A DNA stretch of 32,000 nucleotides from Flavobacteriaceae bacterium (GCA_965224465.1 OZ245049.1:3780001-3812000); one strand, 5' to 3'; shown: positions 1 to 24,940, counted from the stretch's first letter. The notes: generated by a model from the letters alone, not told the origin. Made by a program: numbers and translations.

Positions 1-228
1 TTTATAATAGAAAAACAAAAAAAAGAGAGTTTAAGCAAAACCCTTTTACAAATAAAATAGAGAATGGTTCTATTGTTTTAAAATGGTGTGATATAGGTAA
101 TGTCGATGGTTTTTAATCCCCGATCCCGCCAGTTCAATGTTTTTAAGTTAAGAATTTAATCATTTAAAAATTAGTATTTTAAATTTACTTTAATCAAGTA
201 TACATAAATAGCACAAAAACTATCTCGT

Positions 229-1986
229 TTGGTATGTAAGCACAAAAATGAATGGTCTTATACTATGGACGAAATAAAACCAGAAGTAAAAGAACGCTGT
301 GATTTTGGTATACAATTAGAAGAAGTTACAGCCGAAAAACAAAAACTAGAAACCGAAAGGGATGATAGTTTAGCCAAAATGGAAACCAAAATAGAAAATT
401 TAATGTGGTGGGATGAGGCAAGTAAAAAAACCTACACAGCACCCATAAAAGAAGAAGATAAAACAAAAACGAGTAGCACCAAAAGACCTTCTATGTTGCC
501 AGAAGGTACAGTGGTAGAAGAAATACCACAAAAAGATGTTGTACCTTTAGACAATAAAACAAAAGCAGTTAAACCAGATGCTAAACCAACGGAAGATAGT
601 ATACAAACGACAAGTACAACCGCTGCTCCAGCACCAGAAACTAAAGTAGAAGAAAAAGAAGTACCACCAAAACGTATGTTTCCTAAAAGCAATATAGTAC
701 ATCACTTTCATCCAATTGCTTGGGTGGAGCAGATGAGACTTGTTTTTGGAGAGGGTGGCGGAGATTGTGAATCTCTTATTTGGGGAAATAAAGTAAGTTG
801 TGAATTTAGAAAACGAGTAATTCAAATATCTAAACGTCTTGAATGCGATCCTAATCATTTAATGGGAGCTATGGCATTAGAAACTGGAGGGAAATTTGAC
901 CCTAAGGTCGATAATGGTTTAGGTAAAGACAAAGATGGTATTGGTTACATCGGATTAATTCAGCTTGGAAATGATGCTATAAAAGATATGAATAGGAATT
1001 ATTTTCTACATAGGGCAAAAATTAAAAAGAAAGATTTAAGAGCAATGTCTGCCGTAGAGCAATTATGCTATGTAGAATATTATTTAGCCAAACATAAAGG
1101 TAAACTTAAAACCTTAGCAGATTTTTATTTAGCAATACTTTGGCCAGATGCAGTAGGTCACGGTAATGAACCTAATTATATTGTTTTCGATGATGAGGCT
1201 AGTGGTAATAAGAAAAGAGCATATTACTCAAACCCTACGTTTTTTAGAGAAGATGATGAGTTTAAGAAAAATAGTAAGGGAAAAATATACGAAAGACATG
1301 GTAAAACAGGAGGTAAAACGTATGTATGGGAAATAGCTGAAGCCATACAAGAATGGTATGATAAGGGAGTGCCTGAAAAAAACACTTCTAGTAACTGTAC
1401 TTGTAATACAAATTGCTCATGTTGTAAATGTATTGATTTAACAAATAAGGTTATTTGGATAAGTCAGTTTAACAAAAGTGAACGTAGAAGTAATGGCACT
1501 ATGAAAACAGATGGATGCTGGAGAACTTCCCAAAAATTATTAATTGATGCAGGCTTAAGTAAAACTTCGGGTTATAAAACAGGGATGATTATAACAGCAT
1601 TAGAGGATGATGCTCATACTTCTTTATCTTTGACAAAGAGAGTAAAAGATGGTGTCGATTATATTGACTCTGAACTAGAAAAAGGAAATCCTGTCTTAGT
1701 TGGTCTAAATCATACCATTAACTATAGACGCAATGGTAAAATAATTAATGCAGACTCCTCACTAGGAGACCCAGGAACTACAGATCATTATGTGGTTGTC
1801 ATAGGTAGAGGATGTGAAAAAAATAAAGTGTATTATCGTTTTTATGAAGTAGGTACAAGTTGGGCACATTATGGGCAAAACTCTAGAAATAAATTATTTT
1901 TAGGAAGTGACTTTTCTTTAAAGGGAAGTCCTGGAAATAATAAAGAAAAAAAATATACAGTAAGTCAAGTACGAAAAAATCAATAA
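229..1986 (+). CDS. Multidomain polymorphic antibacterial effector candidate (N-terminal region, low-complexity linker, lysozyme-like domain, papain-like Cys/His peptidase domain)
   Basis: 585-aa ORF (TTG at 229; first ATG at 265). Residues ~70-155 are a Pro/Thr/Lys/Glu-rich linker. The 'NIVHHFHPIAWVEQM' block is shared with two downstream cassettes. 'AMALETGG...GYIGLIQLG' resembles the catalytic-Glu plus GLxQ motifs of lysozyme-like transglycosylases or phage-tail lysozymes. A Cys-rich linker 'NCTCNTNCSCCKC' follows. C-terminal 'DGCWRTS' and 'TDHYVVVIGRG' form a Cys/His pair typical of C39-like/NlpC-like peptidases. No signal peptide. Confidence 0.6.
   Translation: MVCKHKNEWSYTMDEIKPEVKERCDFGIQLEEVTAEKQKLETERDDSLAKMETKIENLMWWDEASKKTYTAPIKEEDKTKTSSTKRPSMLPEGTVVEEIPQKDVVPLDNKTKAVKPDAKPTEDSIQTTSTTAAPAPETKVEEKEVPPKRMFPKSNIVHHFHPIAWVEQMRLVFGEGGGDCESLIWGNKVSCEFRKRVIQISKRLECDPNHLMGAMALETGGKFDPKVDNGLGKDKDGIGYIGLIQLGNDAIKDMNRNYFLHRAKIKKKDLRAMSAVEQLCYVEYYLAKHKGKLKTLADFYLAILWPDAVGHGNEPNYIVFDDEASGNKKRAYYSNPTFFREDDEFKKNSKGKIYERHGKTGGKTYVWEIAEAIQEWYDKGVPEKNTSSNCTCNTNCSCCKCIDLTNKVIWISQFNKSERRSNGTMKTDGCWRTSQKLLIDAGLSKTSGYKTGMIITALEDDAHTSLSLTKRVKDGVDYIDSELEKGNPVLVGLNHTINYRRNGKIINADSSLGDPGTTDHYVVVIGRGCEKNKVYYRFYEVGTSWAHYGQNSRNKLFLGSDFSLKGSPGNNKEKKYTVSQVRKNQ
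664..735 (+). repeat. Conserved junction block, copy 1 (inside the full-length effector)
   Basis: 'ccaccaaaacgtatgtttcctaaaagcaatatagtacatcactttcatccaattgcttgggtggagcagatg' is near-identical to 6432..6503, and its 3' 45 bp to 3621..3665. Sequence diverges completely right after 'gagcagatg' in each copy. Confidence 0.85.
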
Positions 1987-1990
1987 CTAA

Positions 1991-2794
1991 ATGAAAAAAA
2001 TAATATTCTTATTCTGTCTAAGTTTTGTTTTGATTTCTTGTGATAATAAAAATCAAAATAATCATTCTAAATTTCAAAGAGAAAATAATCATACGAATCC
2101 CGATAGCAAAGTAAGTAATGTCAGTTTAAAAGGTGATTTTTACGACATAGAGGAATTTAAAAATTTTATCAATAAAAAATGGGTTGATGTAGGAGATGAG
2201 AATCCGTGTCATCCCTATAGTCAAAGTGTAACTGTTAAAAATGGATATGTATATGAATATAATACTATAGAACCTTCAGAATATAAGATAGATACGATTG
2301 TAGAAATTGATTTAAAAACACTAAGTATAAAAATAGAGAATAGCTTAAACCGTGATGTTATATTCAAAGTAGAAGTCTTAAATTTTAAAGAAAAAATTGT
2401 AAAGTGGTCTTTAAATGAAAAATCTTTTGTAGCAAAACCGTATGATGATGTTTGTAATATTGAAGAAAAAGAAAAGATAAATGAAAAGAATACCTTTAGC
2501 AATGATTGGAATGGTTTTTATCAATTTACGAATGCTAAAGAAGATGAAGATTGGAGAGAAGGTAAAGATTACGATTTGTATATTTCTTTAGATTCAGTCA
2601 ATCTAAAAAGTTATGGGTACCAACATTTAAGAAATATAAAATGTTATGTGAGACAGAAAGAAGATAGCTTGTTTATTTATAGTTTAGATAAAGAATATGG
2701 GCTTTTGTTAAAACTTTTTGTTAAAAATGATAAATATGTTGTTTCATCTTTGATCGATAAAAAAGATTTGTTTGAAGTTGTAAAAAAGTATTAA
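1991..2794 (+). CDS. Lipoprotein, putative cognate immunity protein of the 229..1986 effector
   Basis: Starts 4 nt after the effector stop. N-terminus MKKIIFLFCLSFVLISC is a signal peptide plus lipobox Cys. 267 aa, no recognisable enzymatic motif. Confidence 0.6.
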   Translation: MKKIIFLFCLSFVLISCDNKNQNNHSKFQRENNHTNPDSKVSNVSLKGDFYDIEEFKNFINKKWVDVGDENPCHPYSQSVTVKNGYVYEYNTIEPSEYKIDTIVEIDLKTLSIKIENSLNRDVIFKVEVLNFKEKIVKWSLNEKSFVAKPYDDVCNIEEKEKINEKNTFSNDWNGFYQFTNAKEDEDWREGKDYDLYISLDSVNLKSYGYQHLRNIKCYVRQKEDSLFIYSLDKEYGLLLKLFVKNDKYVVSSLIDKKDLFEVVKKY

Positions 2795-2799
2795 TGTAG

Positions 2800-3493
2800 C
2801 CAGCTCTCTTAGTATGGAATGTCTACCTAATGGGAGGCCTTAAAAGAAACACGTCAGCATCATGATTTATCACTACCAGAGGGCTTAGAAGTATTACTGC
2901 AAGCTGAACAGTTATATCATGAAAATAGGCGTTTTGAACGCTTAAAACGAAGTGCTAAGTTTAGATATAGTGCCAGTATAGAGGAGTTAAACTTTGAAAC
3001 CTCTAGAGGCTTAAATAAATCACAAGTGACCTAGCTTGCAACGGGAAACTACATTAAAAACGGAGAGTCAATACTTATAACAGGCTCCACTGGATTTGGT
3101 AAAAGCTTTACAGCATCGGCATTGGGACACAGAGTATGTTCTCAAGGAGTAAAGGTGTTATACTATAACCTTCAAAAACTACTCACCATTATTAAAATGG
3201 CACGTATTGATGGAAGTGTTTTTAAGCTATTGGAGAAAATATCAAAATCTGGATTATTGATACTCGACAATTTTGGAATAACTCATTTAAATAACCAGCA
3301 ACAAATGGATTTAATGGAACTAATTGAAGATCGACACGGAAAATCATCCACCATAATAGCGAGTCAATTACCCGTGGAAAACTGGTATGAAATCATCGGA
3401 GAAGCAACCATAGCAGACGCCATTTTGGATCGATTAGTACACCGCTCTCACCGAATAGAATTAAAAGGAAAAAGTCTAAGAAAAAAACTGTAA
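2800..3493 (+). pseudogene. istB: IS21-family IstB helper ATPase, degraded (5' truncated or frameshifted, in-frame TAG at 3032..3034)
   Basis: Translation '...LEVLLQAEQLYHENRRFERLKRSAKF...FETSRGLNKSQVT*LATGNYIKNGESILITGSTGFGKSF (Walker A)...LLILDNFG (Walker B)...DRLVHRSHRIELKGKSLRKKL'. No istA is adjacent. Confidence 0.8.
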
Positions 3494-3620
3494 CTTTTTC
3501 AGTATCTCATTTTTAAGACCAAAATCTACAGAGGGGTCAACATCATCGGAATATCTACCTTTTCAATTAGAAAAAAATGATTAATTAATAACAAAGTACT
3601 AGAACGGATGTTCAAGTACA

Positions 3621-3665
3621 AATATAGTACATCACTTTCACCCTATTGCTTGGGTGGAGCAGATG
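3621..3665 (+). repeat. Conserved junction block, copy 2
   Basis: 'aatatagtacatcactttcaccctattgcttgggtggagcagatg' encodes NIVHHFHPIAWVEQM. Confidence 0.85.
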
Positions 3666-4042
3666 CGGAGAGTTTTTGGAGATAATGGTATTTGTGTTTG
3701 TGATGCTAGTGTTAGAGCATATATGCGAATGTTGAGAGTTGGTGAAGGTACAGAAAAAGAAATAGGATATACAACTATGTATGAGTAAGCATCCTGAAAA
3801 GGTAATTACTGCGGGAAAATATTCTTCCTCAGTTGTAGGTTCTGGGTGTGAAGAAGGAAAAAGATTCTATAATTTTTTTGATGTTGGTTCTAAAACTAAA
3901 GAAAAAGGTACTGACACAAAGAACAAATTATTTATTGACGATAATTTGCTTATTTCAGGAAAAAGTAATGGAGGGACATATAACTACACAATAACAGAGG
4001 TAAGAAAAAACAACAAAAAAAATATTAAAAATGAAATTATTT
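3621..4042 (+). pseudogene. Degenerate effector cassette 2 (lambda-lysozyme/GH104-like fragment frame-shifted onto a C-terminal peptidase-domain fragment)
   Basis: Frame 0 reads NIVHHFHPIAWVEQMRRVFGDNGICVCDASVRAYMRMLRVGEGTEKEIGYTTMYE* ('MLRVGEGT...GY' resembles 'LDMLAWSEGT...GY' of lambda R-type lytic transglycosylases). Frame +1 from 3781 reads ...GSGCEEGKRFYNFFDVGS...NKLFIDD...YTITEVRKN, homologous to the last ~80 aa of the 229..1986 protein. There is no N-terminal region and the 3' end runs into the IS. Confidence 0.5.
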
Positions 4043-5616
4043 ACTCAAGTTTCGCACTTAGATAGATTTACGCAACCTCTTGATAGTTAAGCTTGTGGGT
4101 ATTCACTAGGAATCCAAAATCTTCAATATTCGCTATTATTTTACGTGTAACCATTTCAACATCAATAGATTCAATCATCTTTTCCAAAATGTCAATCACC
4201 AAGCTGATAACTGCTAATATCCTGATGTTTAGCTTATTCTCTATATAATCTTGTTTTAAATCTTTAAACAAGCCTCCTATAGTTTCGTAGGCTTCCATTC
4301 TATATCGAATACTGGTGAGTAAATATTGAACCATTATAATGCTTATTTGTGCGATTTGAATATCGAAATTAGTAGACTGACATTTTCCAAGACCAAACAA
4401 CTGCTTAGCTTCTTTAAAAAACACTTCTATGGACCATCTGATACTGTATATTTCAATAGCCTTTACAAATTTCAGTGTTGTATCCGTTGATATTAACGTG
4501 TGCCATTTGCCATTCTTTCCACGTTTTGAAATAAATACAGCAACCTTAAGACCATCAATTTCAGTTATGTAATGATGGTAGTAATAATTGAATTTACGGC
4601 ATCGTTTTGGTTTTATTTTCTGTTTTTTGAGTTGTGACAACGTTTTTATCTTTGATCGAACTTCAATCTTACTGTTGTATTTATACATCCCAATAATATG
4701 AGTTGAACTACTAATGTTCCGTAGCTTTCTAAGTAATTTAACACTTGTAAACCAGGTGTCTATTAAGATGTAATCTATGGGGATTTTACGTTTTACAAGC
4801 CTTGAGAACATTTGAACTAGCAGGTCTGTTTTCTTTTTATTGAGTTCCTGATACCTCTTTGCTGCAATTGTTTTACTACATCTTGGAGTTTTCTTTTGAA
4901 GCCTACGTTGCTTCGCCGTTAGACCGTATTTTAATTTTGATGTTTTACTTTCACGATGCAAACTAAAGTCAACAGGGATAAATACACTTCCATTCCAATA
5001 ACCAGCTACAAGTAGCTTAAAGCCTAGGTAATACGTTTTTGACACATGGTTGTATATTTTTGAAACACCTTCAATTGTCTTTCCTGTTTTAGAAAGATCA
5101 GTATCGTCAAAGATCAAGCACTTTGTAGCGTCTTGAGATGGAGTAAAGAACTCTTCTTTTAATAGATATTGCTTCACAAACTGAGCTAGAAAAACCCTCC
5201 AATTTATCTTTTGATTTGCTAGGATTCGATAGTATGAATCTTTACCCGACTGACCTAATCCCTTGTCTTTACTACTTGTAAGTCCATGAATAGAATCAAA
5301 TCCGATAATAGGTAAAATTAAAAGTGTAGAGATTAAATTACCGAATGAAATCCCCGATTTCTTACACCAACTAAACTTGTTTTTAATTTTATTGAATCCT
5401 AAAATATTTAGATGTGCTTGTAGGTATTCTGAACTAAGCCAAATCTTATTAAATTTTCCTTTTATCTCCTGTGTTTTTGTGATATCTTCGTGTTCTAGCA
5501 TGTTTTGTACTTTCTTGTTCGTACTTAAAAGTACAATAAAACCAGGGGATTACCTTGGTTTTCATGCTATTTATTTTTACTTAAACACCTGTAAATGATG
5601 GGTGCGAAACTTGAGT
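4043..5616 (-). mobile_element. IS4-family insertion sequence, copy A (1574 bp)
   Basis: Terminal inverted repeats ACTCAAGTTTCGCAC (4043..4057) and GTGCGAAACTTGAGT (5602..5616). Flanking direct duplication TATTT (4038..4042 and 5617..5621); it reads as 7-bp TTATTTA if the ends are shifted 1 nt. A ~97% identical copy lies at 29771..31344. Confidence 0.85.
4068..5501 (-). CDS. IS4-family DDE transposase
   Basis: 477 aa. Motifs 'LIFDDTD', 'ILIDTWFTS' and 'YSIRWSIEVFFKEAK', the last matching the Y-(2)-R-(3)-E-(6)-K signature of IS4-family transposases. Confidence 0.85.
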   Translation of the reverse strand: MLEHEDITKTQEIKGKFNKIWLSSEYLQAHLNILGFNKIKNKFSWCKKSGISFGNLISTLLILPIIGFDSIHGLTSSKDKGLGQSGKDSYYRILANQKINWRVFLAQFVKQYLLKEEFFTPSQDATKCLIFDDTDLSKTGKTIEGVSKIYNHVSKTYYLGFKLLVAGYWNGSVFIPVDFSLHRESKTSKLKYGLTAKQRRLQKKTPRCSKTIAAKRYQELNKKKTDLLVQMFSRLVKRKIPIDYILIDTWFTSVKLLRKLRNISSSTHIIGMYKYNSKIEVRSKIKTLSQLKKQKIKPKRCRKFNYYYHHYITEIDGLKVAVFISKRGKNGKWHTLISTDTTLKFVKAIEIYSIRWSIEVFFKEAKQLFGLGKCQSTNFDIQIAQISIIMVQYLLTSIRYRMEAYETIGGLFKDLKQDYIENKLNIRILAVISLVIDILEKMIESIDVEMVTRKIIANIEDFGFLVNTHKLNYQEVA

Positions 5617-5621
5617 TATTT

Positions 5622-6425
5622 ATAATTTATGTACTGGCTATCAGTTTGATATCATGCCAACAAAAAAATTCAAATAATACACAAGATTTTAAAGGACATA
5701 CTTTCCTTAAAGTTACTAAGATAAAGTCTAAAAAAGTATTATATAAGCCATGTTATGCATCAATAGAAACATATAAATTTTATAAAGACTCAATATATCA
5801 CAACTGGGGTCAGGAACATTATAATTTTAAAGGTGTATATATAATTAATAACGATGGTAGCTTTTTATTCAAAGGGCTTAATAAGAATTTTTCGAAAAAT
5901 GAATATACTTTAAAAATTAATAAAGTAAAAGGTACAGATTTTTTTTGGTATATAAATGATGATATTTTCATTGATAGTCTTAATATCAAGCAAATCCTTT
6001 TTGAAAAAGAAATTTGCGAAGAAGATATTAATAAGCCTATAAAAAACAATCATCAAATCCTTGATATTAATGGAAGTTGGAAAGTAACATGTATAGAAGA
6101 TAAATCTGCTTTATTAATCTTTGATAAATCAAGAGGGTATTTAGATATCCGAATTAATAATGATTATGCAAGAGTTAGTGTTGATATAAAAGAATATAAT
6201 CATATTTATAATCTTAAATATAATGTATTAACAGGTATAACTCGACACAACGAGTTCGTTGATTGGTTAGATATTTCACATGATAGTATTATAGGTAACT
6301 TTACTATAAAAGATAAGAATATAAAATTTAATTGGTTAGGTTTCTATAATATGAAAACTAGAAAAAGAGAACTTAATCAAAATATTTTTGAAAAAGAGTC
6401 TATATTATTAAAAAAATGTGACTAG
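5622..6425 (+). pseudogene. IS-split lipoprotein gene (putative immunity of cassette 2); its first 12 nt are at 4031..4042
   Basis: Removing the IS and one TSD copy joins ATGAAATTATTT (4031..4042) to ATAATTTATGTACTGGCTATCAGTTTGATATCATGC. This gives MKLFIIYVLAISLISCQQKNS..., a signal peptide plus lipobox. The downstream frame is open to 6425. Confidence 0.7.
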
Positions 6426-6431
6426 AAAACA

Positions 6432-6503
6432 CCATCAAAATGTATGTTTCCTAAAAGTAATATAGTACATCACTTTCATCCTATTGCTTGGGGGGAGCAG
6501 ATG
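6432..6503 (+). repeat. Conserved junction block, copy 3
   Basis: 'ccatcaaaatgtatgtttcctaaaagtaatatagtacatcactttcatcctattgcttggggggagcagatg' starts 6 nt after the preceding lipoprotein stop. It encodes MFPKSNIVHHFHPIAWGEQM, then hits a stop after 8 more codons. Confidence 0.85.
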
Positions 6504-7102
6504 AATGGCTATTATGGTCTGACTTAATCAATCCAATGAATATTTTAAAAGAAGGATGTAAAAGTACTTTTAAAAACAAAAATGACGATACTAAAAGAGT
6601 TAATCCTAAAACTTTGAATACAAGTAAAAAAGGAATCCAATTTATTAAATATTGGGAAAGTTTCAAGAGTGAAGCATATAATGACTCTGAAGACTATTGT
6701 ACAATAGGTTATGGGCACTTAATTGCCCGTGATAAATGTGAAAACATTACTTTATCTGAAGGATTTAAAAATGGAATTACTAAAGAAAAAGCAACCGAAT
6801 TATTTAAAGATCGTCTAGTAGACTTTGAAAATTCTATTCAAAGAGATATAAGTGTTGATTTGCATCAATATGAATTTGATGCATTAGTTAGTTTGGCTTT
6901 CAACACAGGTTCAAACTTTTTAAATACTGGAGGAGCAGGAAAAGGAGAGACCCAAATAAAAAAGAAAATTAATAATGAAAACTACTCTGAAGGAGCTGAT
7001 GAAATGGGTGATGTAACTAATAATGGAACAAGTGGCTTAGTAAAAAGAAGAAAAGCCGAAATTAATATTTTCAAAAATAACATTTATGATTCGACACACT
7101 AA
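6488..7102 (+). CDS. GH24 (T4/phage-type) lysozyme domain protein, orphan toxin module decoupled from the junction block
   Basis: 'FIKYWESFKSEAYNDSEDYCTIGYGH' matches the Glu-8x-Asp-5x-Thr catalytic triad spacing of GH24 lysozymes; 'FDALVSLAFNTG' and 'GLVKRRKAE' are further typical motifs. It is in a different frame from the junction block; the first ATG is at 6536. Confidence 0.7.
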   Translation: MGGADEWLLWSDLINPMNILKEGCKSTFKNKNDDTKRVNPKTLNTSKKGIQFIKYWESFKSEAYNDSEDYCTIGYGHLIARDKCENITLSEGFKNGITKEKATELFKDRLVDFENSIQRDISVDLHQYEFDALVSLAFNTGSNFLNTGGAGKGETQIKKKINNENYSEGADEMGDVTNNGTSGLVKRRKAEINIFKNNIYDSTH

Positions 7103-7333
7103 GCGAAGGTATCTTATAATAGTTGTATTATTTATTTCTTTTATATCATGTAAAAAAGAAATAACAAAAAATAATACTGTAGAAAAATCTACTAAAAAAA
7201 TAAATATACAAGGTTTTTGGAATTGTACAAAAACCGAAAAAGACAAACGATTTACAACAAAATTCGGGGATTTATATACTCAAGAATTTCAACTATATTC
7301 TAAGTTTAGAATTAAAAATGACTCCATCTATAT
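7086..7333 (+). pseudogene. Lipoprotein gene (putative immunity to the GH24 lysozyme), 5' part, interrupted by IS66
   Basis: MIRHTKRRYLIIVVLFISFISCKKE is a signal peptide plus lipobox. The start overlaps the lysozyme ORF end by 17 nt. The frame continues at 9861 after IS removal. Confidence 0.7.
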
Positions 7334-7391
7334 GTATCCGTCCGACCATCCCCATATTTTTTAGTGGAAAAATAGCTTCTATTTTTGACGC

Positions 7392-7700
7392 ATGAGAAAA
7401 AACGAAGAAAAACGAGCCTATATGACAGCTGTTGTTTCCGATTGGAAGTTGAGTGATTTAACCTTGGAAGATTATTGTAAAAGTCATAAAATTACACTTT
7501 GTAAATTTAGGTACTGGAATAAGAAATTGACCTCCAAAAATGCCAGTGGATTTTCAAAGGTTGAACTTATTGATGCTCCTATTGAAAACAGCAGAAATTC
7601 TATTTTAGATAGTTTTAAAATCGAGTATCCAACAGGTGTAAATTTGGTCATTAACAAAGAGATTACACTTATCGATTTACAAAATTTAATTCATTTGTAA
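7392..7700 (+). CDS. tnpA: IS66-family accessory protein TnpA (Orf1)
   Basis: 102-aa first ORF of the IS66 operon, ending 1 nt before tnpB. Confidence 0.7.
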   Translation: MRKNEEKRAYMTAVVSDWKLSDLTLEDYCKSHKITLCKFRYWNKKLTSKNASGFSKVELIDAPIENSRNSILDSFKIEYPTGVNLVINKEITLIDLQNLIHL

Positions 7701-7701
7701 T

Positions 7702-8043
7702 ATGCTAAATCTTTCAAGTGAACTTGATTTTCATCTGTACCTAGAACCCACAGATATGCGTAAAGGATTTAATGGTTTGTCAGGTGTTATCCGTAATAAT
7801 TTAGAAGAGGATCCTAGTAATGGAGCTGTTTTTATCTTCATAAATAAACCTCGAAACAAAATAAAACTATTGCATTGGCAAGCAGGTGGATTTGTACTGT
7901 ATTATAAACGATTGGAACGAGGTACTTTTGAACTTCCGGTGTATGATAATCTGAAAGGAAGTATACAAATGAAATACAGCCAAATGGTGATGCTTCTTGA
8001 TGGACTGTCTATAAAAAACATCCAACAAAGGAAACGTTATTAA
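7702..8043 (+). CDS. tnpB: IS66-family accessory protein TnpB (Orf2)
   Basis: 'DMRKGFNGLSGVIRN...GAVFIFINKPRNKIKLLHWQAGGFVLYYKRLERGTF' is the characteristic IS66 Orf2 signature. Confidence 0.85.
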   Translation: MLNLSSELDFHLYLEPTDMRKGFNGLSGVIRNNLEEDPSNGAVFIFINKPRNKIKLLHWQAGGFVLYYKRLERGTFELPVYDNLKGSIQMKYSQMVMLLDGLSIKNIQQRKRY

Positions 8044-8111
8044 TGTCTTTTTACAGGTAAAAAACCTAATAAAACCAGGCTGTTCATGTATATTTTTCGT
8101 ATATTTAATGT

Positions 8112-9797
8112 ATGGAAAAAGACTTAGAACAGCTATCAAAAAAAGCACTTATAGCCCTATTACAGGAGGCTAATTCTAAGTCAGATTTACTTATCAAAAA
8201 GACAAATTCTCTTAGCTCAAAGAATGAGTTACTTAATACAAAGACAAGTTCTCTTAGCGCAAAGAATGAGTTACTTACTATAAAGACAAAAGACGTTACT
8301 TTACAAAAGGCTATCCTAGAAGCTCAATATAAAGAATTAGAGACAAAATACGGATATGGACAATTTCAATTAGAGCAATTACGTCGTATGATTTTTGGGA
8401 CAAAACGTGAGCGTTTTATAATGGCTAATAACCCTTTTCAAATGCAACTCCCTTTCGAAGTTTTAAAAGAGATGCCCCAGGAAGAAGAAGCTCCTGTAAA
8501 CATTACATATCAACGTAAAAAGGCTAAAAAAAGAACGATTGGAAGTTTAAATCTCCCCAGTCATTTACCTGTTGAAATTATTAATTTAGAGCCTAAAGAG
8601 ACTATAGAGAACCGAATAAAAATAGGTGAAGAAATTACAGATAAATTAGAACTTGTACCCACAAAGCTATACATAAAACGATATGTCAGACCAAAATACG
8701 CCTTAAAAAAGAAAGTACAAGACACATTGATTGACAATGGAAACCCTTTAGGTATTAAGACCGTTATTATGGCTGATTTACCAAGTTTTGCTATTGAAAA
8801 ATCTGTAGCATCAAACAGCCTGCTAGCACAGCTATTGATTGATAAATTCTTAGATCACTTACCGTATTATCGACAGATAGAACGTTTTAAACGAGAAGGA
8901 ATCTCTATAAGTTCATCTACAATAAATGGATGGCAAAACAGCTTAGGACACTTACTTAAGCCGCTGTATCAGGCTATGAAAAACACGGTGCTGTCACAAG
9001 GATATGTACAGGCCGATGAATCAACTATTCCAGTGCTAGACAAACAGAAAAAAGGAAAAACTCATACTGGATATCATTGGGTGTACTATTCACCCATACA
9101 AAAAATGGTATTGTTTGATTATCGTCCCTCTAGATCTAAACATGGACCTAGAGAAATGCTTAAAAACTTTAAAGGGTATTTACAAACAGATGGCTACGCT
9201 GTATATGATGAATTTGCACATAAAAAAGATGTCACTTTAGTAGGGTGTATGGCACATGCACGTCGTTATTTTGAGAAAGCACTAGACTATGACAAAGTAA
9301 AAGCGAGTCATGCGATGGTACTCATTCAACAATTATATGCCATTGAGCGACATTGTAAAAAACAGGAATTTACTCCTGAGCAACGGCATGCTTATCGCCT
9401 AGATAAAGCACAACCAATAATGGATACATTTATAAAATGGTTGATCCATAACACCCAAGGAAGCTTACCGAAAAGTCCACTAGGAAAAGCAATTACTTAT
9501 ACATTAAAACGATGGGACTACTTAAAAGCCTACCTGTATGACGGTACTTTAGAACTAGATAATAACCTAGTAGAAGGATCTATCAGAACATTAGCTATTG
9601 GACGTAAAAATTATTTATTTGCAGGTAGCCATGATGCTGCAAAAAATGCAGCGATGTTCTATTCCTTTTTTGGGACTTGTAAAAAACACCAAGTAAACCC
9701 CTATAAATGGATGAAAAAAATACTGGATATAATCCCTGATTACAATGCTCAAAAATTAAGTGAGCTATTTCCACAAAATTTAAACCTCGATCAATAA
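8112..9797 (+). CDS. tnpC: IS66-family transposase TnpC
   Basis: 561 aa with an N-terminal coiled-coil/leucine-zipper-like region. Motifs 'LPYYRQ...F.REGI.IS..T', 'QADESTIPVL', 'GYHWVY', 'LQTDGYAVY', 'CMAHARRYF', 'DNNLVEGSIR' and 'GRKNYLFAGS'. Confidence 0.9.
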   Translation: MEKDLEQLSKKALIALLQEANSKSDLLIKKTNSLSSKNELLNTKTSSLSAKNELLTIKTKDVTLQKAILEAQYKELETKYGYGQFQLEQLRRMIFGTKRERFIMANNPFQMQLPFEVLKEMPQEEEAPVNITYQRKKAKKRTIGSLNLPSHLPVEIINLEPKETIENRIKIGEEITDKLELVPTKLYIKRYVRPKYALKKKVQDTLIDNGNPLGIKTVIMADLPSFAIEKSVASNSLLAQLLIDKFLDHLPYYRQIERFKREGISISSSTINGWQNSLGHLLKPLYQAMKNTVLSQGYVQADESTIPVLDKQKKGKTHTGYHWVYYSPIQKMVLFDYRPSRSKHGPREMLKNFKGYLQTDGYAVYDEFAHKKDVTLVGCMAHARRYFEKALDYDKVKASHAMVLIQQLYAIERHCKKQEFTPEQRHAYRLDKAQPIMDTFIKWLIHNTQGSLPKSPLGKAITYTLKRWDYLKAYLYDGTLELDNNLVEGSIRTLAIGRKNYLFAGSHDAAKNAAMFYSFFGTCKKHQVNPYKWMKKILDIIPDYNAQKLSELFPQNLNLDQ

Positions 9798-9811
9798 ATC
9801 GAGGTTTTTTT
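9782..9811 (+). terminator. Hairpin plus T-run at the IS66 right end (overlaps the tnpC stop)
   Basis: AAACCTCGAT-caataa-ATCGAGGTTT followed by TTTT. The same hairpin is present in both IS66 remnants (10640s and 11390s, reverse strand). Confidence 0.5.
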
Positions 9812-9860
9812 ATGTATTTTTAATTCCTATACGTACTTCGTCGGACGGATACATCTATAT

Positions 9861-10419
9861 TGGAGAATGTCAAGAAGAAATATTTAAATATAAATACGCA
9901 ACTAAACCTAAAAAGTATGGTGATGAGAGTGTTTTTTTAATTAAAGCAAAAAATATTGACAGCATTTTAATTGTTTCGACGTATGAAAATAAAAATAATT
10001 CTTGTATTCCTTTAGGTAATTTAACTTTTTATTTAAATAATAAAAATGAAATAATAATACATGATAGAGGTTGTTTTTTTACTTTTACTAAGTTTAATAG
10101 AAAGAGTGAAATATGTAATAGTATAGGTTTACCTGGGAATAATCGAAATTATTGGAATGTTGAATGTAAGCTAAAAACAAATGAATTACATGAAGCTTAT
10201 GAAATGTTTAAACAAAAATATCCATATGCATCGAAAAACTTGAAGAGTGTATTGCCAAAACGAAACTACACCGATAATAAAAACAACATAACTTATACTG
10301 TGAAAAAAAATAATGTAATAATACAAAAATCTGATCCCTCAGGTATAATTTATATTGAATTAAAGCAACTGAATAAAAATTATCAACTAAAATATGAAAT
10401 GAAATTCCCTGAATATTAG
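9861..10419 (+). pseudogene. 3' part of the IS66-interrupted lipoprotein (immunity candidate) gene
   Basis: The frame is open from 9862 to the stop at 10419 (…IGECQEEIFKYKYATKPKKYGDESVF…KFPEY*). Joined to 7086..7333 it gives a ~270-aa lipoprotein, the same size class as the other two cassette lipoproteins. Confidence 0.7.
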
Positions 10420-10596
10420 TTAAAGTACTTTCTTAAGGCTCAACTAGCATTTAGCGTTGTTATAAAAATTTTGTCATAATCAGTTTGGATATTGTTATAT
10501 ATTTGAATTGCATTTGAACGTTTCATTGAGTACTTAAGGATAGTAACTATCCAATTTGGTTCTTTACGATATGAATCTTTAATTGTTTGCCTATTT

Positions 10597-10697
10597 GTAT
10601 CCGTCCGACGAAGCACGTATAGGAATTAAAAATACATAAAAAAACCTCGATTTATTGATCGAGGTTTAAATTTTGTAGAAATAGCTCATTTAATTTT
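10597..10697 (-). mobile_element. IS66 right-end remnant (101 bp, inverted orientation)
   Basis: Near-identical to the reverse complement of 9752..9852, including the terminal GTATCCGTCCGAC and the hairpin. Homology stops abruptly at 10697. Confidence 0.85.
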
Positions 10698-10943
10698 AGC
10701 GCAACTACACCACCTTGGATGGAGGTGGCTTTAGCAGAAGCTAAAAAAGCTAAGTTTATTAGAGAAACTTTGAGTCCAACATCTGAAATGGCTAATAAAT
10801 ACCATACTTATGTAGGGATGCCTAAAGCTACTGGTTCTACAGCTTGGAGTGCCTCTTTTGTTAATTGGTGTTTAAACGAATCTGGTCAAAAAAGTGTAAA
10901 ATCAGCCGGTTCACAAAGTATACTTTGGAATGAAGGAAAACTA
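10698..10943 (+). pseudogene. Fragment of an NlpC/P60-like (TIGR02594-like) cell-wall hydrolase toxin domain, truncated at both ends by IS debris
   Basis: 'TTPPWMEVALAEAKKAKFIRE...NKYHTYVG...TAWSASFVNWCLNESGQKSVKSAGSQSILWNEGK' follows my recollection of the PPW..A..E...E...N...WC.AFVNWCL..AG...S..A.S...WG pattern. The frame is open into the IS66 remnant on the left and runs into the IS21 end on the right. Confidence 0.4.
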
Positions 10944-11345
10944 TTTGGCTATTATGGTCGGACCATGCCACTGATTATGGTCAAACAGTGCCACTCTAAA
11001 AGATATGCAATTATAAGAAAAACATTCTTAATCTCAGTTTTGTATTCGTTTTCTTAAAGACTCACCTTGAAGGATTATTCTGTGAGATGAGTTTACGATT
11101 CTATCCAAAACAGCATCTGCAATAGTTCCTTCTCCGATAATATCATACCATCCAGAAACAGGTATTTGTGATGTTATGATGGTGGATTTATTACTGTGTC
11201 GTTCATCAATAATATCCATTAATACTTCCCTAGCATGATTGTCAAAAGACTGTAACCCGAAGTCGTCGAGTATTAATAAGTCTATTTTTATGAGTTTGTT
11301 AAGTTCTTTCAAATAGGTCCCATCGACCTTTGCTGTATCCGTCCG
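10944..11345 (-). mobile_element. istB: IS21-family right-end remnant with a C-terminal istB fragment (11034..11345)
   Basis: The minus-strand translation '...AKVDGTYLKELNKLIKIDLLILDDFG...DERHSNKSTIITSQIPVSGWYDIIGEGTIADAVLDRIVNSSHRIILQGESLRK' is the IstB Walker B through C-terminus. Downstream of its stop are repeated '..GACCATAAT..' motifs ending in ...CCATAATAGCCA, read as TGGCTATTATGG on the + strand at 10944. It is cut at 11345 by an IS66 remnant. Confidence 0.75.
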
Positions 11346-11735
11346 ACGAAGTACGTATAGGAATTAAAAATACATAAAAAAACCTCGATTTATTGATCGA
11401 GGTTTAAATTTTGTGGAAATAGCTCATTTAATTTTTGAGCATTGTAATCAGGGATTATATCCAGTACTTTTTTCATCCATTTATAGGGGTTTACTTGGTG
11501 TTTTTTACAAGTCCCAAAATAAGGAATAGAACATCGCTGCATTTTTTGCAGCATCATGGCTTCCTGCAAATAAATAATTTTTACGTCCAATAGCTAATGT
11601 TCTGATAGATCCTTCTACTAGGTTATTATCTAGTTCTAAAGTACCGTCATACAGATAGGCTTTTAAGTAGTCCCATCGTTTTAATGTATAAGTAATTGCT
11701 TTTCCTAGTGGACTTTTCGGTAAGCTTCCTTGGGT
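11346..11735 (-). mobile_element. IS66 right-end remnant (390 bp, includes the last ~110 codons of tnpC)
   Basis: Reverse complement matches ~9463..9852 of the intact IS66. ORF 11390..11590 (…FGTCKKHQVNPYKWMKKVLDIIPDYNAQKLNELFPQNLNLDQ) is the TnpC C-terminus. Confidence 0.85.
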
Positions 11736-12063
11736 CGTATCTTATAAAAGGAGACGAATTACAAGATTTTTAGGGTGAATATTCCCGTAAGCTAATCTAA
11801 AGGAGGTTTGATTAATTGCATTGAAATAGTCCTAACGGTTACGAACGCGAAGAATATCGATAATTTCGAGAGATATTTTATTCAATACACCTTCTTTTCC
11901 ACCTAAAAAAGAGTAAAATCTCAGTTTTTTTCTTTGTTATTAAAAAACGATAGAGCCCTTTGTTTTATTGATAAAATGAAGGCTTTTCCCAGTGGTGTAC
12001 TGGGCTGAATATGGATGAAATTAATATTTTTTGATTATTAAAAGGATATATGCTTTTTTTTAT

Positions 12064-12131: not shown

Positions 12132-12518
12132 ATGTCTTTTAAAGCAAAATTAAAAGTAGGTGGACAAGAGTACAATGTATTGTCTTGTTCTTATGAATTA
12201 CATCAAGAAACTGATGCAACTGGAAGACCATCTTCTATCACTAGAGGTGGGAAAATTAGATTAACGGTTGAGTCTACAGCAGACACAAGTTTGTCTGATT
12301 GGATGTTTAATAACTTTGAGCGTAGAGACGGTTCTATTGTTTTCTTAAAAAGAGATACCGAAGCTACTGCAAAGGAATTAAAGTTTTCTGAAGGTTATAT
12401 GGTGAAATATCTAGAGAATTTTGATTCTACAGGTAAAAATCCAATGTCAGAGTCATTTATCATTTCAGCAAAATCTGTTGCAATGGGGAATGGTGAACAT
12501 GTAAATGATTGGGTGTAA
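12132..12518 (+). CDS. tssD: Bacteroidetes-type T6SS tube protein Hcp/TssD, paralog 1
   Basis: 128 aa. 'MSFKAKL.VGG.EYNVL.CSY.L.Q..DATGRPSS...GG.I.L.VEST.DTS...WM......DG.I.F.K.D....KEL.F...Y...Y.E.F......PM...F.ISA......G.....W' matches the ~130-aa T6SSiii Hcp pattern I recall from Bacteroides and Flavobacterium. Confidence 0.85.
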   Translation: MSFKAKLKVGGQEYNVLSCSYELHQETDATGRPSSITRGGKIRLTVESTADTSLSDWMFNNFERRDGSIVFLKRDTEATAKELKFSEGYMVKYLENFDSTGKNPMSESFIISAKSVAMGNGEHVNDWV

Positions 12519-12792: not shown

Positions 12793-13188
12793 ATGTCGTT
12801 TTTATCACAATTAACAATAGCCGATGATACCATGAATGTATTGCGATGTTCTTTTAACTTTGAACAAGGTGCAGATGCTGCTGGTAAACCATCACAAAGA
12901 CCAAGTGGAGGGAAACTCATAATTTTAATAGAATCTACTAGTAAAACAGATTTTTTGGAATGGATGATCTCTCCCAATATGACCAAAAATGGAGAAGTTG
13001 TTTTTTATAAAAGAGACAACATGTCTAGTTTAAAAACCATTACTTTTAAAAATGCCTATTGTTTGAGCTATCAAGAAGATTTTGATGCAGAAGGGAACCA
13101 ACCTTTAAAAACACGGATTGTTGTGTCTGCAAAAGAAATTACAGTAAAGGATACTACCTTTTTCAATAACTGGTTTGATAGAGAATAA
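12793..13188 (+). CDS. tssD: Bacteroidetes-type T6SS tube protein Hcp/TssD, paralog 2 (divergent)
   Basis: 131 aa, same architecture (MSF...NVLRCSF.F.Q..DA.GKPS....GGK....IEST....F.EWM......G.V.FYKRD......I.F.NAYC..Y.E.F......P....I.VSAKEI). About one-third identity to paralog 1 by eye. Confidence 0.8.
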   Translation: MSFLSQLTIADDTMNVLRCSFNFEQGADAAGKPSQRPSGGKLIILIESTSKTDFLEWMISPNMTKNGEVVFYKRDNMSSLKTITFKNAYCLSYQEDFDAEGNQPLKTRIVVSAKEITVKDTTFFNNWFDRE

Positions 13189-13273: not shown

Positions 13274-15046
13274 ATGGCGCTACAAAGCAACACAACTATA
13301 ATTATTAAGAGACAAGAATTTTCAAGTTTTCAAAGCCTTAACTTACATCAGGAAATTGATGCATCCCATTTGTTAACACTTACGTTTAGAATGGACACAC
13401 TTGAAGATCTAGAAGAAGAACTTGCAACCAACAGTAAGGAGTTTTTGGGGGAAACAATTTCCTTGCAAACGATTCCTGCAAATGGTTTTGAAGACCGTTA
13501 TGGCGAATTGACGTTTAAAGGTATTATTACCGAAATAAAAATCATAAAAGGGCATGAGGTAAGTGATGGTGATAAAGTAGTTATAGTGGCAAAAAGCCCC
13601 GATTTTTTAACAAATGATGGTCCGCATTTTGCGTCTTACAACGATGTTTCCCTCTCAGAAATTATTGATAGTTCGTTTGAAGGCTATGATACTTCAAAAT
13701 TAGAAGTAGACATACGCCCTCAAAACAACCCTAGTTTGCATTATTCGGTACAGCATAACGAAAGTGCTTTTACGTATGTAAGTAGACTTGCAGCACAATA
13801 CGGAGAGTGGTTCTATTACGATGGCGCGAAATTAGTATTTGGAATGCCTGGTACCGAAGACTTAGAACTCACCTATGGATTTGATTTAGTAGAGTATCAG
13901 ATACGTTTGATACCTCAATCCAACAATTACAAAATATTTGCAAATGATTATTTAACCGATGAGGTACAAGAAAAATCAACAAGCGAAACCAATGCCGGTT
14001 TAAGAGGTTTTGGAGGCTTTGTTTCTGAAAAATCAAATGCCATCTACAGAAAAGAAACAAAAATTTGGCACAATTTATACAGCAATACAGAAGTGCAACA
14101 GCGTTTAGATACAGCGGTGGAATTGCAGAAAAAAGCGATTGATGTAAAACAAGTAAAAGTACAGGGTGTTTGTGATAATCCAGGAGTAAAAATTGGGAGA
14201 GTAGTTGTAATAGAAGGCAATAGATACAGAATTATAGAGGTTACACATAGCAATAATGAAATTGGCGATTATACAAATAAATTTGAAGGAATTACCGCAG
14301 ATATAAACGCATATCCATACACCAACATAAACGCATTTCCAAAAAGCGAAACACAGGTAGCTACCGTAAAAGAAAATGCAGATCCCGATGGATTGGGGCG
14401 CATAAGAGTGCAATTTCCATGGCAAGTGGAGTATAGCGAGTTAACCCCATGGGTGCGCATTGTAACACCACATGGAGGAGCAAATAAAGGATTCCATTTT
14501 ATACCAGAAATTGAAGAAAAAGTATTGGTGGGCTTTGAAGGGGGGAATGCAGAACATCCTTATATATTGGGGAGTTTGTACACGGGAAATGCCAAACCCG
14601 AAGCGTTTAAGACAGCAAATAACGATATAAAAGCGATAAAAACACGTAGTGGACATATTATTGAGTTTAATGATAGTGAAAATAAAGAAACAATTACTAT
14701 TAGGGATAAGAATAGCAACATGATACAGTTTAATACCAACGATAGCTCTATCCTTATTTCTGCTCCAGAAAAACTTACAATCATGTCTAAAGACCTAGAT
14801 ATAATGGTAAAAGAAAATTTTACTATTACAGTTGGAAAAGATAAAAAAGAGCAAATTTCAGGTGCTTATAAGTTGTCTGCTACTAACATTATAGAAATAG
14901 CTTCAGAAGCAATAAAAAGCAAAGCTGAAGAGATTTTAAATCAAGCAGATAAAGACATTACCATAACAAGTGTTAACGGGAATATAACTAAGCAGGCTGA
15001 AAAAAAAATAAATAATAACAGTGGTCAGCAAACGAACCTTTTTTAA
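13274..15046 (+). CDS. vgrG: T6SS spike protein VgrG/TssI
   Basis: 590 aa. gp27-like N-terminal half, and a gp5 OB-fold signature 'DPDGLGRIRVQFPWQ...TPWVRIVTPHGGANKGFHFIPEIEEKVLVGFEGGNAEHPYILGSLY'. C-terminal beta-helix-like repeats follow. Confidence 0.9.
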   Translation: MALQSNTTIIIKRQEFSSFQSLNLHQEIDASHLLTLTFRMDTLEDLEEELATNSKEFLGETISLQTIPANGFEDRYGELTFKGIITEIKIIKGHEVSDGDKVVIVAKSPDFLTNDGPHFASYNDVSLSEIIDSSFEGYDTSKLEVDIRPQNNPSLHYSVQHNESAFTYVSRLAAQYGEWFYYDGAKLVFGMPGTEDLELTYGFDLVEYQIRLIPQSNNYKIFANDYLTDEVQEKSTSETNAGLRGFGGFVSEKSNAIYRKETKIWHNLYSNTEVQQRLDTAVELQKKAIDVKQVKVQGVCDNPGVKIGRVVVIEGNRYRIIEVTHSNNEIGDYTNKFEGITADINAYPYTNINAFPKSETQVATVKENADPDGLGRIRVQFPWQVEYSELTPWVRIVTPHGGANKGFHFIPEIEEKVLVGFEGGNAEHPYILGSLYTGNAKPEAFKTANNDIKAIKTRSGHIIEFNDSENKETITIRDKNSNMIQFNTNDSSILISAPEKLTIMSKDLDIMVKENFTITVGKDKKEQISGAYKLSATNIIEIASEAIKSKAEEILNQADKDITITSVNGNITKQAEKKINNNSGQQTNLF

Positions 15047-19434: not shown

Positions 19435-20508
19435 ATGAATTTTAAAATCTATTATCTCCTATTTGCTTTTTCATTTATAGGATGCTCACAAAATAAAAAA
19501 ACTGATACTTATACGATGAAATTAGATACTTATATAAATGACATATTAAAAAATGTTAAACATTCTATTGATGAAGAAGTGTTTTTTTTATCAATAAGAG
19601 CGTCAAAATCAACTTATAATATTCGGGTTAATGATATGTCGATTAAACAATCTTTTGATTATGAAGATGATAAAAAACAAAGGGTTTCACTAAACTTTCA
19701 TAATCTCAATAAAACATTTAAAAATTCAGGTAAACAAAGAATCTCTTTTAGTATTTATCCATTTAATAGAGACAGATTTAAAGCAAACGATAGAATAAAA
19801 ATTACTATTGAGAAATCAGATAAAACAGGTAATCTTACAGATTATATTGAATATAAGCCGAAAATGATTGACGATGCAGAAACTCCTGAGTTTACTGACA
19901 CAGAAGTGCATGAAGGAAGCTTTGAGTTTGAAGCAAAATTACCTTATAAAAAACAAATAGACTGGTCTGAGTCTAAAAGTTTAAAAGATCAAGAAAATAC
20001 AGAGCAAGAAGTACTAGAGGCGTATAAAGAAGTGATGAGATTATATGCAGAAGGAGATTTAGACAGTTTGTTAGAACTCTACAAACCTATTTTTCAAGAT
20101 GAGGCGCAGTCTGTATATGCAACTAAAGAAAAAGATTATAGGCTATCTTATGAATTAAACTGGGAACGTTTACATCCGTTTTTTTATAAATCAAAACCTA
20201 GATTAGATGCTGATTATGAATTAAAATTTTATGCAGACGGTAGATTGGTTACTTTAGAAAAGAAAAAAAACACGGCTTTAAGTTGTAACAAAAGTGCATT
20301 ATCCATCATATACGATAAAGATTTTGATAAATTCCCTGACAACTTGTTTGTAAGTGCCAAAGATTTAATAATGTTTGGAGATGGTACGATTCCGAAAAAA
20401 GAAATGGAAATATACTTATTCTTCTATAAACCAAAAGGATCAAATACTTTAAAATTAGCTACAGATATTTTTAGAAAAGAAAAATTATTAAATCCAATAG
20501 AAGATTAA
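19435..20508 (+). CDS. Array lipoprotein L1 (type A; putative immunity)
   Basis: 357 aa. MNFKIYYLLFAFSFIGCSQNKK is a lipobox. The conserved core 'GSFEFEAKLPYKKQIDWSES...EVLEAYKEVMRLYAEGDLDSLLELYKPIF' is shared with L2-L10. Confidence 0.85.
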   Translation: MNFKIYYLLFAFSFIGCSQNKKTDTYTMKLDTYINDILKNVKHSIDEEVFFLSIRASKSTYNIRVNDMSIKQSFDYEDDKKQRVSLNFHNLNKTFKNSGKQRISFSIYPFNRDRFKANDRIKITIEKSDKTGNLTDYIEYKPKMIDDAETPEFTDTEVHEGSFEFEAKLPYKKQIDWSESKSLKDQENTEQEVLEAYKEVMRLYAEGDLDSLLELYKPIFQDEAQSVYATKEKDYRLSYELNWERLHPFFYKSKPRLDADYELKFYADGRLVTLEKKKNTALSCNKSALSIIYDKDFDKFPDNLFVSAKDLIMFGDGTIPKKEMEIYLFFYKPKGSNTLKLATDIFRKEKLLNPIED

Positions 20509-24878: not shown

Positions 24879-24940
24879 AGAAAAAAAAATTTTACTACCG
24901 AAAATTTATTTATTTGATCCATTAAGAAATTTTAAAACAA
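24877..24940 (+). pseudogene. Relic of the 3' end of a second (variant) copy of the 965-aa effector gene
   Basis: About 80% nt identity by hand alignment to 19363..19425. It translates as KEKKILLPKIYLFDPLRNFK, versus EEKKILLPKLYLFDPLRQFKK* at the end of ORF 16531..19428. It has the same spacing to the following lipoprotein start. Confidence 0.75.

Follow-up and report, generated by a model that had tools for sequence, protein, structure and literature searches.

The closest described relatives of the locus studied here are systems in which unrelated toxins are joined to a conserved protein at a short boundary motif. In the CdiA-CT/CdiI systems this bounded motif (VENN, PT-VENN) is followed by unrelated C-terminal toxins, each with an adjacent immunity gene, and tandem 5'-truncated orphan modules recombine at the junction. 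The Rhs/YD-repeat effectors of type VI secretion systems (T6SS), as found in the rhs loci of Salmonella and E. coli, similarly combine a T6SS-linked core and a variable toxin with recombinable downstream orphan modules, and the Rhs boundary motif is part of an aspartyl autoprotease. We describe here a comparable arrangement in a stretch of 32,000 nucleotides from a Flavobacteriaceae bacterium (GCA_965224465.1, OZ245049.1:3780001-3812000; referred to as the window, and numbered from its first nucleotide), a low-GC Flavobacteriaceae-type segment which contains three copies of a direct repeat encoding an HFHP..QM peptide, referred to as the handle. It is highly probable that these repeats represent the 3' boundary of the conserved pre-toxin region in a polymorphic family of Bacteroidota T6SS effectors, that toxin/immunity pairs are exchanged at this boundary, and that the window contains a partly decayed row of orphan cassettes.

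The pre-toxin domains PT-VENN, PT-TG, PT-HINT and DUF637 were catalogued by Zhang et al. 2012 (PMC3482391) as conserved elements N-terminal to the toxin and proposed as processing or recombination boundaries, but neither M23 nor LytM was found as a term in that text, and the Pfam pre-toxin domains given there do not match the proteins described below. Similarly, effector modules are displaced one after another in the T6SS auxiliary clusters of Vibrio cholerae (PMC5361080), where recombination of an incoming module takes place at an upstream region which is conserved, and where displaced immunity genes or orphans remain behind as arrays. These are proteobacterial T6SS-i systems which exchange whole effector genes or their C-terminal parts and are not known to use a short peptide motif like HFHP..QM. 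Compared with CdiA, the window proteins and their full-length relatives lack a TPS domain, FHA repeats, CdiB and VENN in Pfam and NCBIfam searches, and there is instead a linkage to Hcp, VgrG and PAAR genes; the immunity candidates are lipoproteins and all toxins found are cell-wall enzymes, whereas CdiA toxins are mostly nucleases or pore formers. In contrast to the Rhs effectors there are no Pfam matches to YD repeats or to an Rhs core, the junction is unrelated to PxxxxDPxGL, and no protease function was detectable in the HFHP..QM family.

An original prediction for this locus, made by a model from the sequence alone, had not recognised the motif as a described pre-toxin demarcation motif, and this agrees with our searches: no Pfam or NCBIfam model covers the motif or the N-terminal architecture in the window proteins and full-length relatives, and the string was present in no relevant paper found. 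Likewise, no title or abstract returned by searches for T6SS-iii or Tenacibaculum effectors described the family, which is weak evidence given the partial coverage of that literature. Judged from the sequences, the delivery scaffold and the demarcation motif appear to be new, while the strategy of diversification via orphan cassettes is already known from CdiA and Rhs and would here operate on a third, unrelated scaffold. To our knowledge, almost nothing is known about cargo recognition and diversification in the T6SS-iii of Bacteroidota.

The junction repeat and cassette 1 of the window

A repeat search over the whole window gave a single direct-repeat family with three copies, located at 663-736, 3593-3666 and 6431-6504 on the + strand. 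The 45-nt core AATATAGTACATCACTTTCATCCAATTGCTTGGGTGGAGCAGATG is present at 691-735 without mismatches and at 3621-3665 and 6459-6503 with two mismatches each; core matches were found in 0 of 100 dinucleotide-preserving shuffles (chance expectation 0), and a six-frame scan of the window gave no additional HFHP-coding copy. The similarity of all three copies ends a few bases past ...GAGCAGATG (CAGATG), so that both parts of the prediction, a three-copy block and complete divergence directly after it, were recovered. With regard to the extents of the repeats, the three copies were confirmed, but the similarity of copy 2 reaches only to ~3603 and includes an indel. While copy 1 (NIVHHFHPIAWVEQM; 691..735 within the full repeat at 663-736) precedes an intact toxin, copy 2 (3603..3665) is degenerate in its 5' part, with an in-frame stop just upstream, and copy 3 (6431..6503) has a W-to-G change and a frame which ends 7 codons past EQM. 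Copy 3 begins 6 nt past the stop codon of the preceding immunity gene, as in the intact arrays of other genomes, and its longest unbroken identity with copy 1 is 23 nt.

The toxin following copy 1 in frame (736..1986, + strand) is intact, with 413 aa, and consists of a lytic-transglycosylase-like domain (~778-1287; PDB 9udh, E=2.8e-19), a Cys-rich linker and a C39/papain-like peptidase domain (~1423-1980; PDB 9jdd, E=6e-27, and 9jg8, E=3e-26), matching the lysozyme/transglycosylase-like plus papain-like module foreseen for this copy. The structure 9udh was deposited as 'lytic transglycosidase', and 9jdd and 9jg8/9jg9 (617-aa chain) as 'Peptidase C39-like domain-containing protein'; a literature search for papers citing 9jg8, 9jdd or 9udh found none of relevance. 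Directly downstream is an intact gene for a 267-aa lipoprotein (1991..2794, + strand; lipobox LISC), which by its position is a putative immunity gene, and a homologue with 45% identity adjoins a handle remnant in Aquimarina hainanensis (L047).

The 229..1986 reading frame had been taken for a full-length effector, but this could not be maintained. It matches only the last 596 aa of the 944-aa paralogue P0060 from the same genome (aa 349-944 align to 208-1983 with 97% identity), while complete relatives are ~1200 aa long, the closest being a 1220 aa protein from a Flavobacteriaceae metagenome-assembled genome (L017) with an identical HHFHPIAWVEQM. The homology to longer paralogues starts abruptly at nt 208, the translation 5' of this position is unrelated, and there is a stop codon at 205. 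In a module alignment of 30 sequences, the leader of cassette 1 (208..690, + strand) corresponds to the 3' part of the conserved pre-toxin region, with ..IAQKLSRLVCKHKNEWSY.., a coiled coil, MWWDEA and a low-complexity K/E/T/P linker, and nucleotides 229-260 encode LVCKHKNEW, an instance of LVCKHxxEW. This leader is the longest in the window (176 aa), and its likely start codon is the ATG at 265, with the TTG at 229 being the mechanical start of the open reading frame (ORF). The 229..1986 frame is thus also a cassette which has lost its 5' part and retains a long leader, so that all copies in the window are orphans. Of these, only cassette 1 remains plausible as a donor, or even as an expressed product starting from ATG 265. 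No tRNA was found at the start of the window, and the idea of a tRNA or att site at that position was dropped.

The source genome contains at least 15 paralogues with a near-identical leader and handle. These differ in the toxin which follows (CHAP, M23, GH24, GH104-like, PG_binding and others), and their 5' extents are nested, with lengths of 944, 772, ~630, ~535, ~585, 515, 510, 488 and 454 aa.

The effector family in Bacteroidota and exchange at the junction

We scanned one genome per GTDB species with a degenerate DNA pattern for [YH]HFHPxx[FW][VI]xQM, which matched 49 stretches. All but one of these stretches (48/49, with 60 motif instances in all) are from Bacteroidota, where they are spread over five orders and include Aquimarina, Cellulophaga, Tamlana, Saccharicrinis, Labilibaculum, Marinifilum, Plebeiibacterium, Cytophagales, Xanthovirga, Saprospiraceae and Bacteroidales. 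The remaining match (L010, Marinospirillum) lacks both FP and [KR], has an ORF tail of only 14 aa, and was rejected as a chance match. The consensus over the 60 instances is FPxxxxVYHFHP[IV]AFVEQM[KR][RL][IM], in which FP (-7,-6), V (-1), A (+6), E and [KR] (+12) are conserved even though they were not imposed by the pattern, and the information content drops from >3 bits to <1 bit three codons past QM. Motif variants such as VWHFHPIAFVEHM exist, and the DNA pattern scan thus undercounts the family. When 1.84 billion representative proteins were searched exhaustively with a profile, this gave 174 clusters (at 50% identity), of which 92 had E<=1e-10, and most members are 950-1550 aa long. A word-indexed protein search with the N-terminal region and handle gave no matches, not even to the query itself, and with the 30-sequence module alignment it gave two proteins; as relatives are found with local phmmer, this is not evidence of absence.

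Approximately 22 of the instances are located 650-1120 aa into large ORFs. These start with an M23-like domain (..WHGGIHIEG..AIADGRIIAYR..H[LIV]E[VI]F..), carry SH3_3 domains, and continue with an EF-hand-like segment and the invariant LVCKHxxEW; next are a coiled coil and F/W-W, from which the motif is separated by a linker 0-100 aa long. In at least 9 loci the full-length gene directly follows Hcp, VgrG and PAAR (or DUF4280) genes, with DUF4280 replacing the PAAR gene in one locus, and this linkage suggests that the proteins are delivered by the T6SS. The marker V[YWH]HFHP[IV]AF[VI]x[QH]M, together with the N-terminal architecture, should allow effector/immunity pairs to be found in Bacteroidota from the sea and from hosts, among them the fish pathogen Tenacibaculum maritimum.

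The PAAR protein encoded between VgrG and the effector is ~160 aa in length and has a conserved C-terminal extension (..MP[LV]xEIPFPxI....KEEAKKHGYLxDFxxS), present in the genes at L017:4602-5090 and L012:4566-5069 (both on the - strand), L021:3586-4065, L001:3981-4466 and 4738-5223, and others. This tail is a candidate docking site for the M23-like N-terminal domain of the effector.

The regions downstream of the junction are highly diverse. The 51 toxin sequences from the loci have a mean column identity of 10% and match 8 Pfam families (CHAP, M23, GH19-like, PG_binding_1, N-acetylmuramidase, VgrG3-like C, Phage_lysozyme and C39_2), and 62 library representatives match 12 Pfam families, which adds Pesticin, GH108, DUF5675, PG_binding_3, YkuD and SLT. 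At least 12 Pfam families are therefore found after the motif, with every family identified being a cell-wall enzyme, which fits with lipoprotein, periplasm-facing immunity candidates. This shared target would also be expected if the motif were the N-terminal element of a single hydrolase fold and travelled with that fold, an objection already raised in the original prediction. We give this practically no chance and consider it refuted, since CHAP, M23, GH19-like, GH24, GH108, pesticin-type lysozyme, N-acetylmuramidase, YkuD, SLT and C39 domains are unrelated folds, and since Chryseobacterium has toxin 1 homologues whose N-termini are different and lack the motif. The motif is thus not part of the hydrolase fold, and its expected occurrence in front of many different C-terminal domains across Bacteroidota was confirmed in 48 further loci.

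Three types of comparison show that these domains are exchanged at the junction. Firstly, orthologous full-length proteins have 74-84% identity over the 300 aa upstream of the junction and 1-12% downstream, as seen for Tamlana vs Pseudotamlana (84% in 300 aa upstream, 9% in 200 aa downstream), Plebeiibacterium vs Saccharicrinis (80% and 12% over the same distances) and Cellulophaga vs Aquimarina (78% and 1%). Secondly, tandem arrays in five loci (L004, L009, L024, L026, L035) consist of intact 5'-truncated orphan ORFs, and directly behind each of these is a separate ORF, in most cases lipoprotein-like. These lipoprotein ORFs are mutually non-homologous within the arrays. Homology between the array copies covers 55-270 nt upstream of the motif (81-94% identity) and in every case stops 45-59 nt past the start of the motif. 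Thirdly, the draft T. maritimum assemblies GCA_045312775.1 and GCA_045312215.1 (L050/L051) are 99.6% identical over 1909 bp up to the ATG of the motif and random beyond it, and the alternative toxin matches, with 96.8% identity, another of the cassettes in the second assembly, which places the crossover within the ~100-bp leader and handle. The two T. maritimum assemblies thus carry alternative toxins fused at this point, a comparison which had been suggested, and the possibility that homologues never swap domains here is contradicted by the orthologue pairs, the arrays and the T. maritimum assemblies alike.

A complete member of the family is a protein of ~950-1550 aa, in which an M23-like domain with SH3 insert, an EF-hand-like segment, a ..LVCKHxxEW.. 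helix, a coiled coil, F/W-W and a linker lead to the junction FPxxxxV[YH]HFHP[IV]A[FW]VEQM[KR], followed by one or two interchangeable peptidoglycan-degrading domains and by the gene for a cognate lipoprotein, the presumed immunity protein. Spare cassettes, each with a short leader, junction, toxin and putative immunity gene, pile up in tandem downstream. We propose that recombination in the shared 50-300 bp of leader and junction, probably of the RecA type and either intragenomic or with incoming DNA, would join a new pair to the delivery region or displace the old one, and that displaced pairs would become nested 5'-truncated orphans. The row in the window represents four of such orphans, with cassette 1 intact and cassettes 2-4 inactivated by deletions, frameshifts and elements of the IS4, IS66 and IS21 families of insertion sequences (IS). 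If so, many short genes starting at or near the motif should be annotated as orphan cassettes rather than as independent genes, and the family would constitute a natural library of peptidoglycan hydrolases in which the junction is a precise point for domain fusion.

A second point of shuffling was seen inside the toxins, where a Cys-rich linker (..CTCNTNCSCCKCIDLTNKV..; ~1290-1425 in toxin 1) connects a domain of the glycosidase type with one of the peptidase type. The T. maritimum proteins P0003 and P0012 share their first domain (96.8% identity over 534 bp; L051 1807-2340 vs L050 1387-1920), and then continue with different peptidase domains and immunity genes.

Constraint on the junction peptide and its codons

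Third codon positions of the motif vary across the five orders while the residues are fixed, which indicates selection at the amino-acid level, and the motif is therefore not a mere patch of DNA homology. In the 30 aligned sequences from five orders, with linkers ranging from 0 to 100 aa, there is no variation in three residues of LVCKHxxEW (H, E and W), in the W of F/W-W, or in HFHP and QM, which suggests that LVCKHxxEW, FW, HFHP and QM are one functional unit, possibly a metal site. These observations, together with the conservation of the unimposed FP, V, A and [KR], would also be accounted for if the motif were conserved mainly for a role of the protein, such as cleavage of the toxin after delivery or docking to the delivery region or the PAAR/VgrG tip, with recombination as a by-product, and pre-toxin domains of other polymorphic toxins have indeed been proposed as processing sites (PMC3482391). 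We see the chances of such a main role in the protein as evenly balanced: no known protease or intein-like domain was detected and the structural model of the region has a pLDDT of 43, but a function of this kind is compatible with, and not opposed to, exchange of toxin/immunity pairs at the junction.

At the codon level the 5' half of the motif drifts freely. The 3' half, GCT TTT GTG GAG CAG ATG A[AG]G, uses codons which are rare elsewhere in the same ORFs (73-87% vs 14-37%; for instance 85% vs 27% for CAG and 76% vs 14% for GTG, based on window 718-741 and the 60 instances in L001-L049), although the p-values for this bias are inflated as the instances are not phylogenetically independent. 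The bias could possibly preserve DNA identity for exchange, cause a translational pause at the boundary or support an internal start at the invariant ATG. From these rare codons it might be supposed that the junction is a nucleic-acid signal, be it a hairpin, the site of a dedicated recombinase (like attC), or a point of translational pause or restart at the invariant ATG. Indeed, a hairpin can be drawn across the handle, since the codons of H-F-H and those of M-K-M are reverse complements of one another, and about a dozen orphans have no in-frame ATG before that of QM. However, we regard this as very improbable. The RNA/DNA hairpin was rejected as a candidate: there was no covariation or compensatory pair, 482 of 500 shuffles equalled the proposed helix, RNAalifold found no consensus structure, and the mean z-score of folding was -0.5. 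Furthermore, the biased sites GTG and AAG give G-U where A-U would pair better, the lack of phylogenetic independence applies here as well, and the Aquimarina/Cellulophaga subgroup uses AT-ending codons. The only recombinase genes in the window are IS transposases (the other loci were not searched for recombinases), which together with the absence of covariation also separates the family from integron-like systems.

A dual-purpose junction, which would combine a self-processing or metal-dependent site in the protein, releasing the cell-wall enzyme in the periplasm of the target, with a DNA or RNA signal for exchange or for internal translation of orphans, appears unlikely. If true, it would be a new class of pre-toxin module specific to the T6SS of Bacteroidota.

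Decay of the cassette row and its surroundings

Toxin 2 (3666..4030, + strand) is a remnant composed of two pieces. The frame of copy 2 encodes 37 codons of a GH104-type start and then reaches a stop (GH104-like piece to 3775), and this 55-aa N-terminal piece is matched by P0040 (aa 141-195 to 3615-3779, 74% identity by tblastn) and is 56% identical to a T. maritimum protein named GH104 by NCBI. The second piece is in another frame and corresponds to the C-terminal ~60 aa of a C39-like peptidase (3832-4005, matched by P0037 aa 564-622 by tblastn), with ~275 aa deleted internally and the two pieces joined out of frame. In immunity gene 2 (4031..6425, + strand; beginning MKLFIIYVLAISLISC... in the repaired ORF) codon four is followed by an IS4-family element (4044-5615; transposase at 4068-5501 on the - strand, NCBIfam 1.6e-116), which splits the gene and is flanked by a 7-bp duplication TTATTTA at 4037-4043 and 5616-5622.

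Toxin 3 (6527..7102, + strand) is a GH24 lysozyme (PF00959, Phage_lysozyme; E=2e-27, 96.3 bits vs a gathering cut-off of 22.3) which is out of frame with the handle. It is matched by P0053 (aa 392-585 to 6527-7099, 87%), and lacks the PG_binding and M15-like domains, both of which are found before GH24 in P0052, P0053 and P0055, the intact paralogues. Immunity gene 3 (7086..10419, + strand) is split by an IS66-family element with inverted ends (7334-9852; ORFs at 7392-7700, 7702-8043 and 8112-9797; NCBIfam IS66 2e-117 and a TnpB_IS66 match), flanked by an 8-bp duplication ATCTATAT. The predicted assignments of a GH104-like fragment to copy 2 and of a GH24 lysozyme to copy 3 are thus correct, but the former toxin is internally deleted and frameshifted and the latter out of frame. 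Excision of the IS elements at their target-site duplications restores unbroken ORFs for immunity genes 2 and 3, so that each module does have its own lipoprotein gene of about 270 aa as predicted, with lipoboxes in all three (267, 271 and 268 aa), and the three lipoproteins are mutually non-homologous. With deleted or frameshifted toxins and IS-split immunity genes, cassettes 2 and 3 are dead relics in the window, and not the silent functional spares which they had been taken for.

Cassette 4 (10704..10990, + strand) is the start of a TIGR02594/CHAP-like amidase toxin (..SATTPPWMEVALAEAKK..; TIGR02594 5e-06), and the suspicion that this fourth fragment is a further remnant proved justified: its start ..PPWMEVALAEAKK.. 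corresponds to the PPWM(E/D).A start found 8-9 aa after the handle in L007, L013 and L035. In cassette 4 an IS66 end fragment (10596-10703) has taken the place of the handle, and an IstB remnant (11034-11312, - strand) truncates the cassette on its 3' side. Another IS21 IstB remnant, covering profile positions 112-233 only, is present between cassettes 1 and 2 (3122..3493, + strand; PF01695 IstB_IS21, E=1e-32).

In view of this decay, it could be argued that the window copies are only debris from duplication and IS decay of once-complete effector genes, without a present role in recombination. Toxins 2 and 3 are deleted internally and frameshifted, immunity genes 2 and 3 are IS-split, cassette 4 has an IS66 end in place of its handle, the cassettes are flanked by fragments of IS21 and IS66, and copies 2 and 3 retain just 45-74 nt of homology. 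We find this somewhat doubtful: it is true of cassettes 2-4 today, but leaves the common 3' limit of homology in the window and 48 loci unexplained, as well as the start of copy 3 at 6 nt after the preceding immunity stop, as in intact arrays, while the perfect target-site duplications indicate that the IS insertions are recent and occurred on an older cassette array.

Several observations nevertheless weigh against the interpretation of the repeats as a boundary for exchange. The window contains neither a complete acceptor gene nor a VgrG-PAAR pair of the HFHP..QM effector family, and the cassettes lie 5' of the Hcp genes, separated from them by IS debris. Cassettes 2-4 could not yield a working toxin, and the 23-nt identity between copies 1 and 3 is marginal for RecA-type recombination, so that any new exchange involving the short copies would have a low efficiency and a dead toxin as its product. 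The Bacteroidota-type -7 promoter motif is absent 5' of cassette 1; TAnnTTTG is also absent upstream of cassettes 2 and 4, and its two matches, one within immunity gene 2 (6383) and one in front of the first Hcp gene (12064), are too weak for interpretation. The AlphaFold2 model of the pre-toxin region, built from a 5-sequence alignment, is unusable, the layout of the other copies in the source genome is known from protein sequences alone, and the T. maritimum comparison is between draft contigs for which misassembly is possible. On balance we still favour toxin/immunity exchange at the junction, with the window as a partly decayed row of its orphans.

With regard to the surroundings of cassette 4, partial IS66 ends (10596-10703, 11334-11740 and 9448-9853) match the complete IS66 element at its 3' end with 95-99% identity, in inverted orientation. 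Together with the two IstB fragments (3122-3493 and 11034-11312) these bracket cassette 4 and separate the cassette row from the Hcp genes, which points to IS-mediated rearrangement of the locus.

Downstream of this region are two Hcp (TssD) genes on the + strand (12132-12518 and 12793-13188; PF17642, 2e-52 and 8e-47), followed by a VgrG gene (13274-15046, + strand; VgrG models). A DUF4280 PAAR-like gene at 16037, a 271-aa ORF and a gene for a 965-aa protein are located downstream of VgrG. Next in the window are approximately 11 tandem paralogous lipoprotein genes of ~366 aa (19435-29793 and 31361-31993), arranged head to tail with overlapping stop and start codons, which probably represent an expansion of immunity genes against the 965-aa effector. 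The paralogues are mosaic, with blocks ..KDKKGWVNYRLKWERL.. vs ..KEKDYRLSYELNWERL.. shuffled between copies. The last copy of this array is split by a second IS4-family element (29765-31354), which is 94.8% identical to the element in immunity gene 2 (4037-5626) and has the same TTATTTA duplication; as both copies are found in TTATTTA, and each inside a lipoprotein (immunity-type) gene, this suggests a preference for the target sequence.

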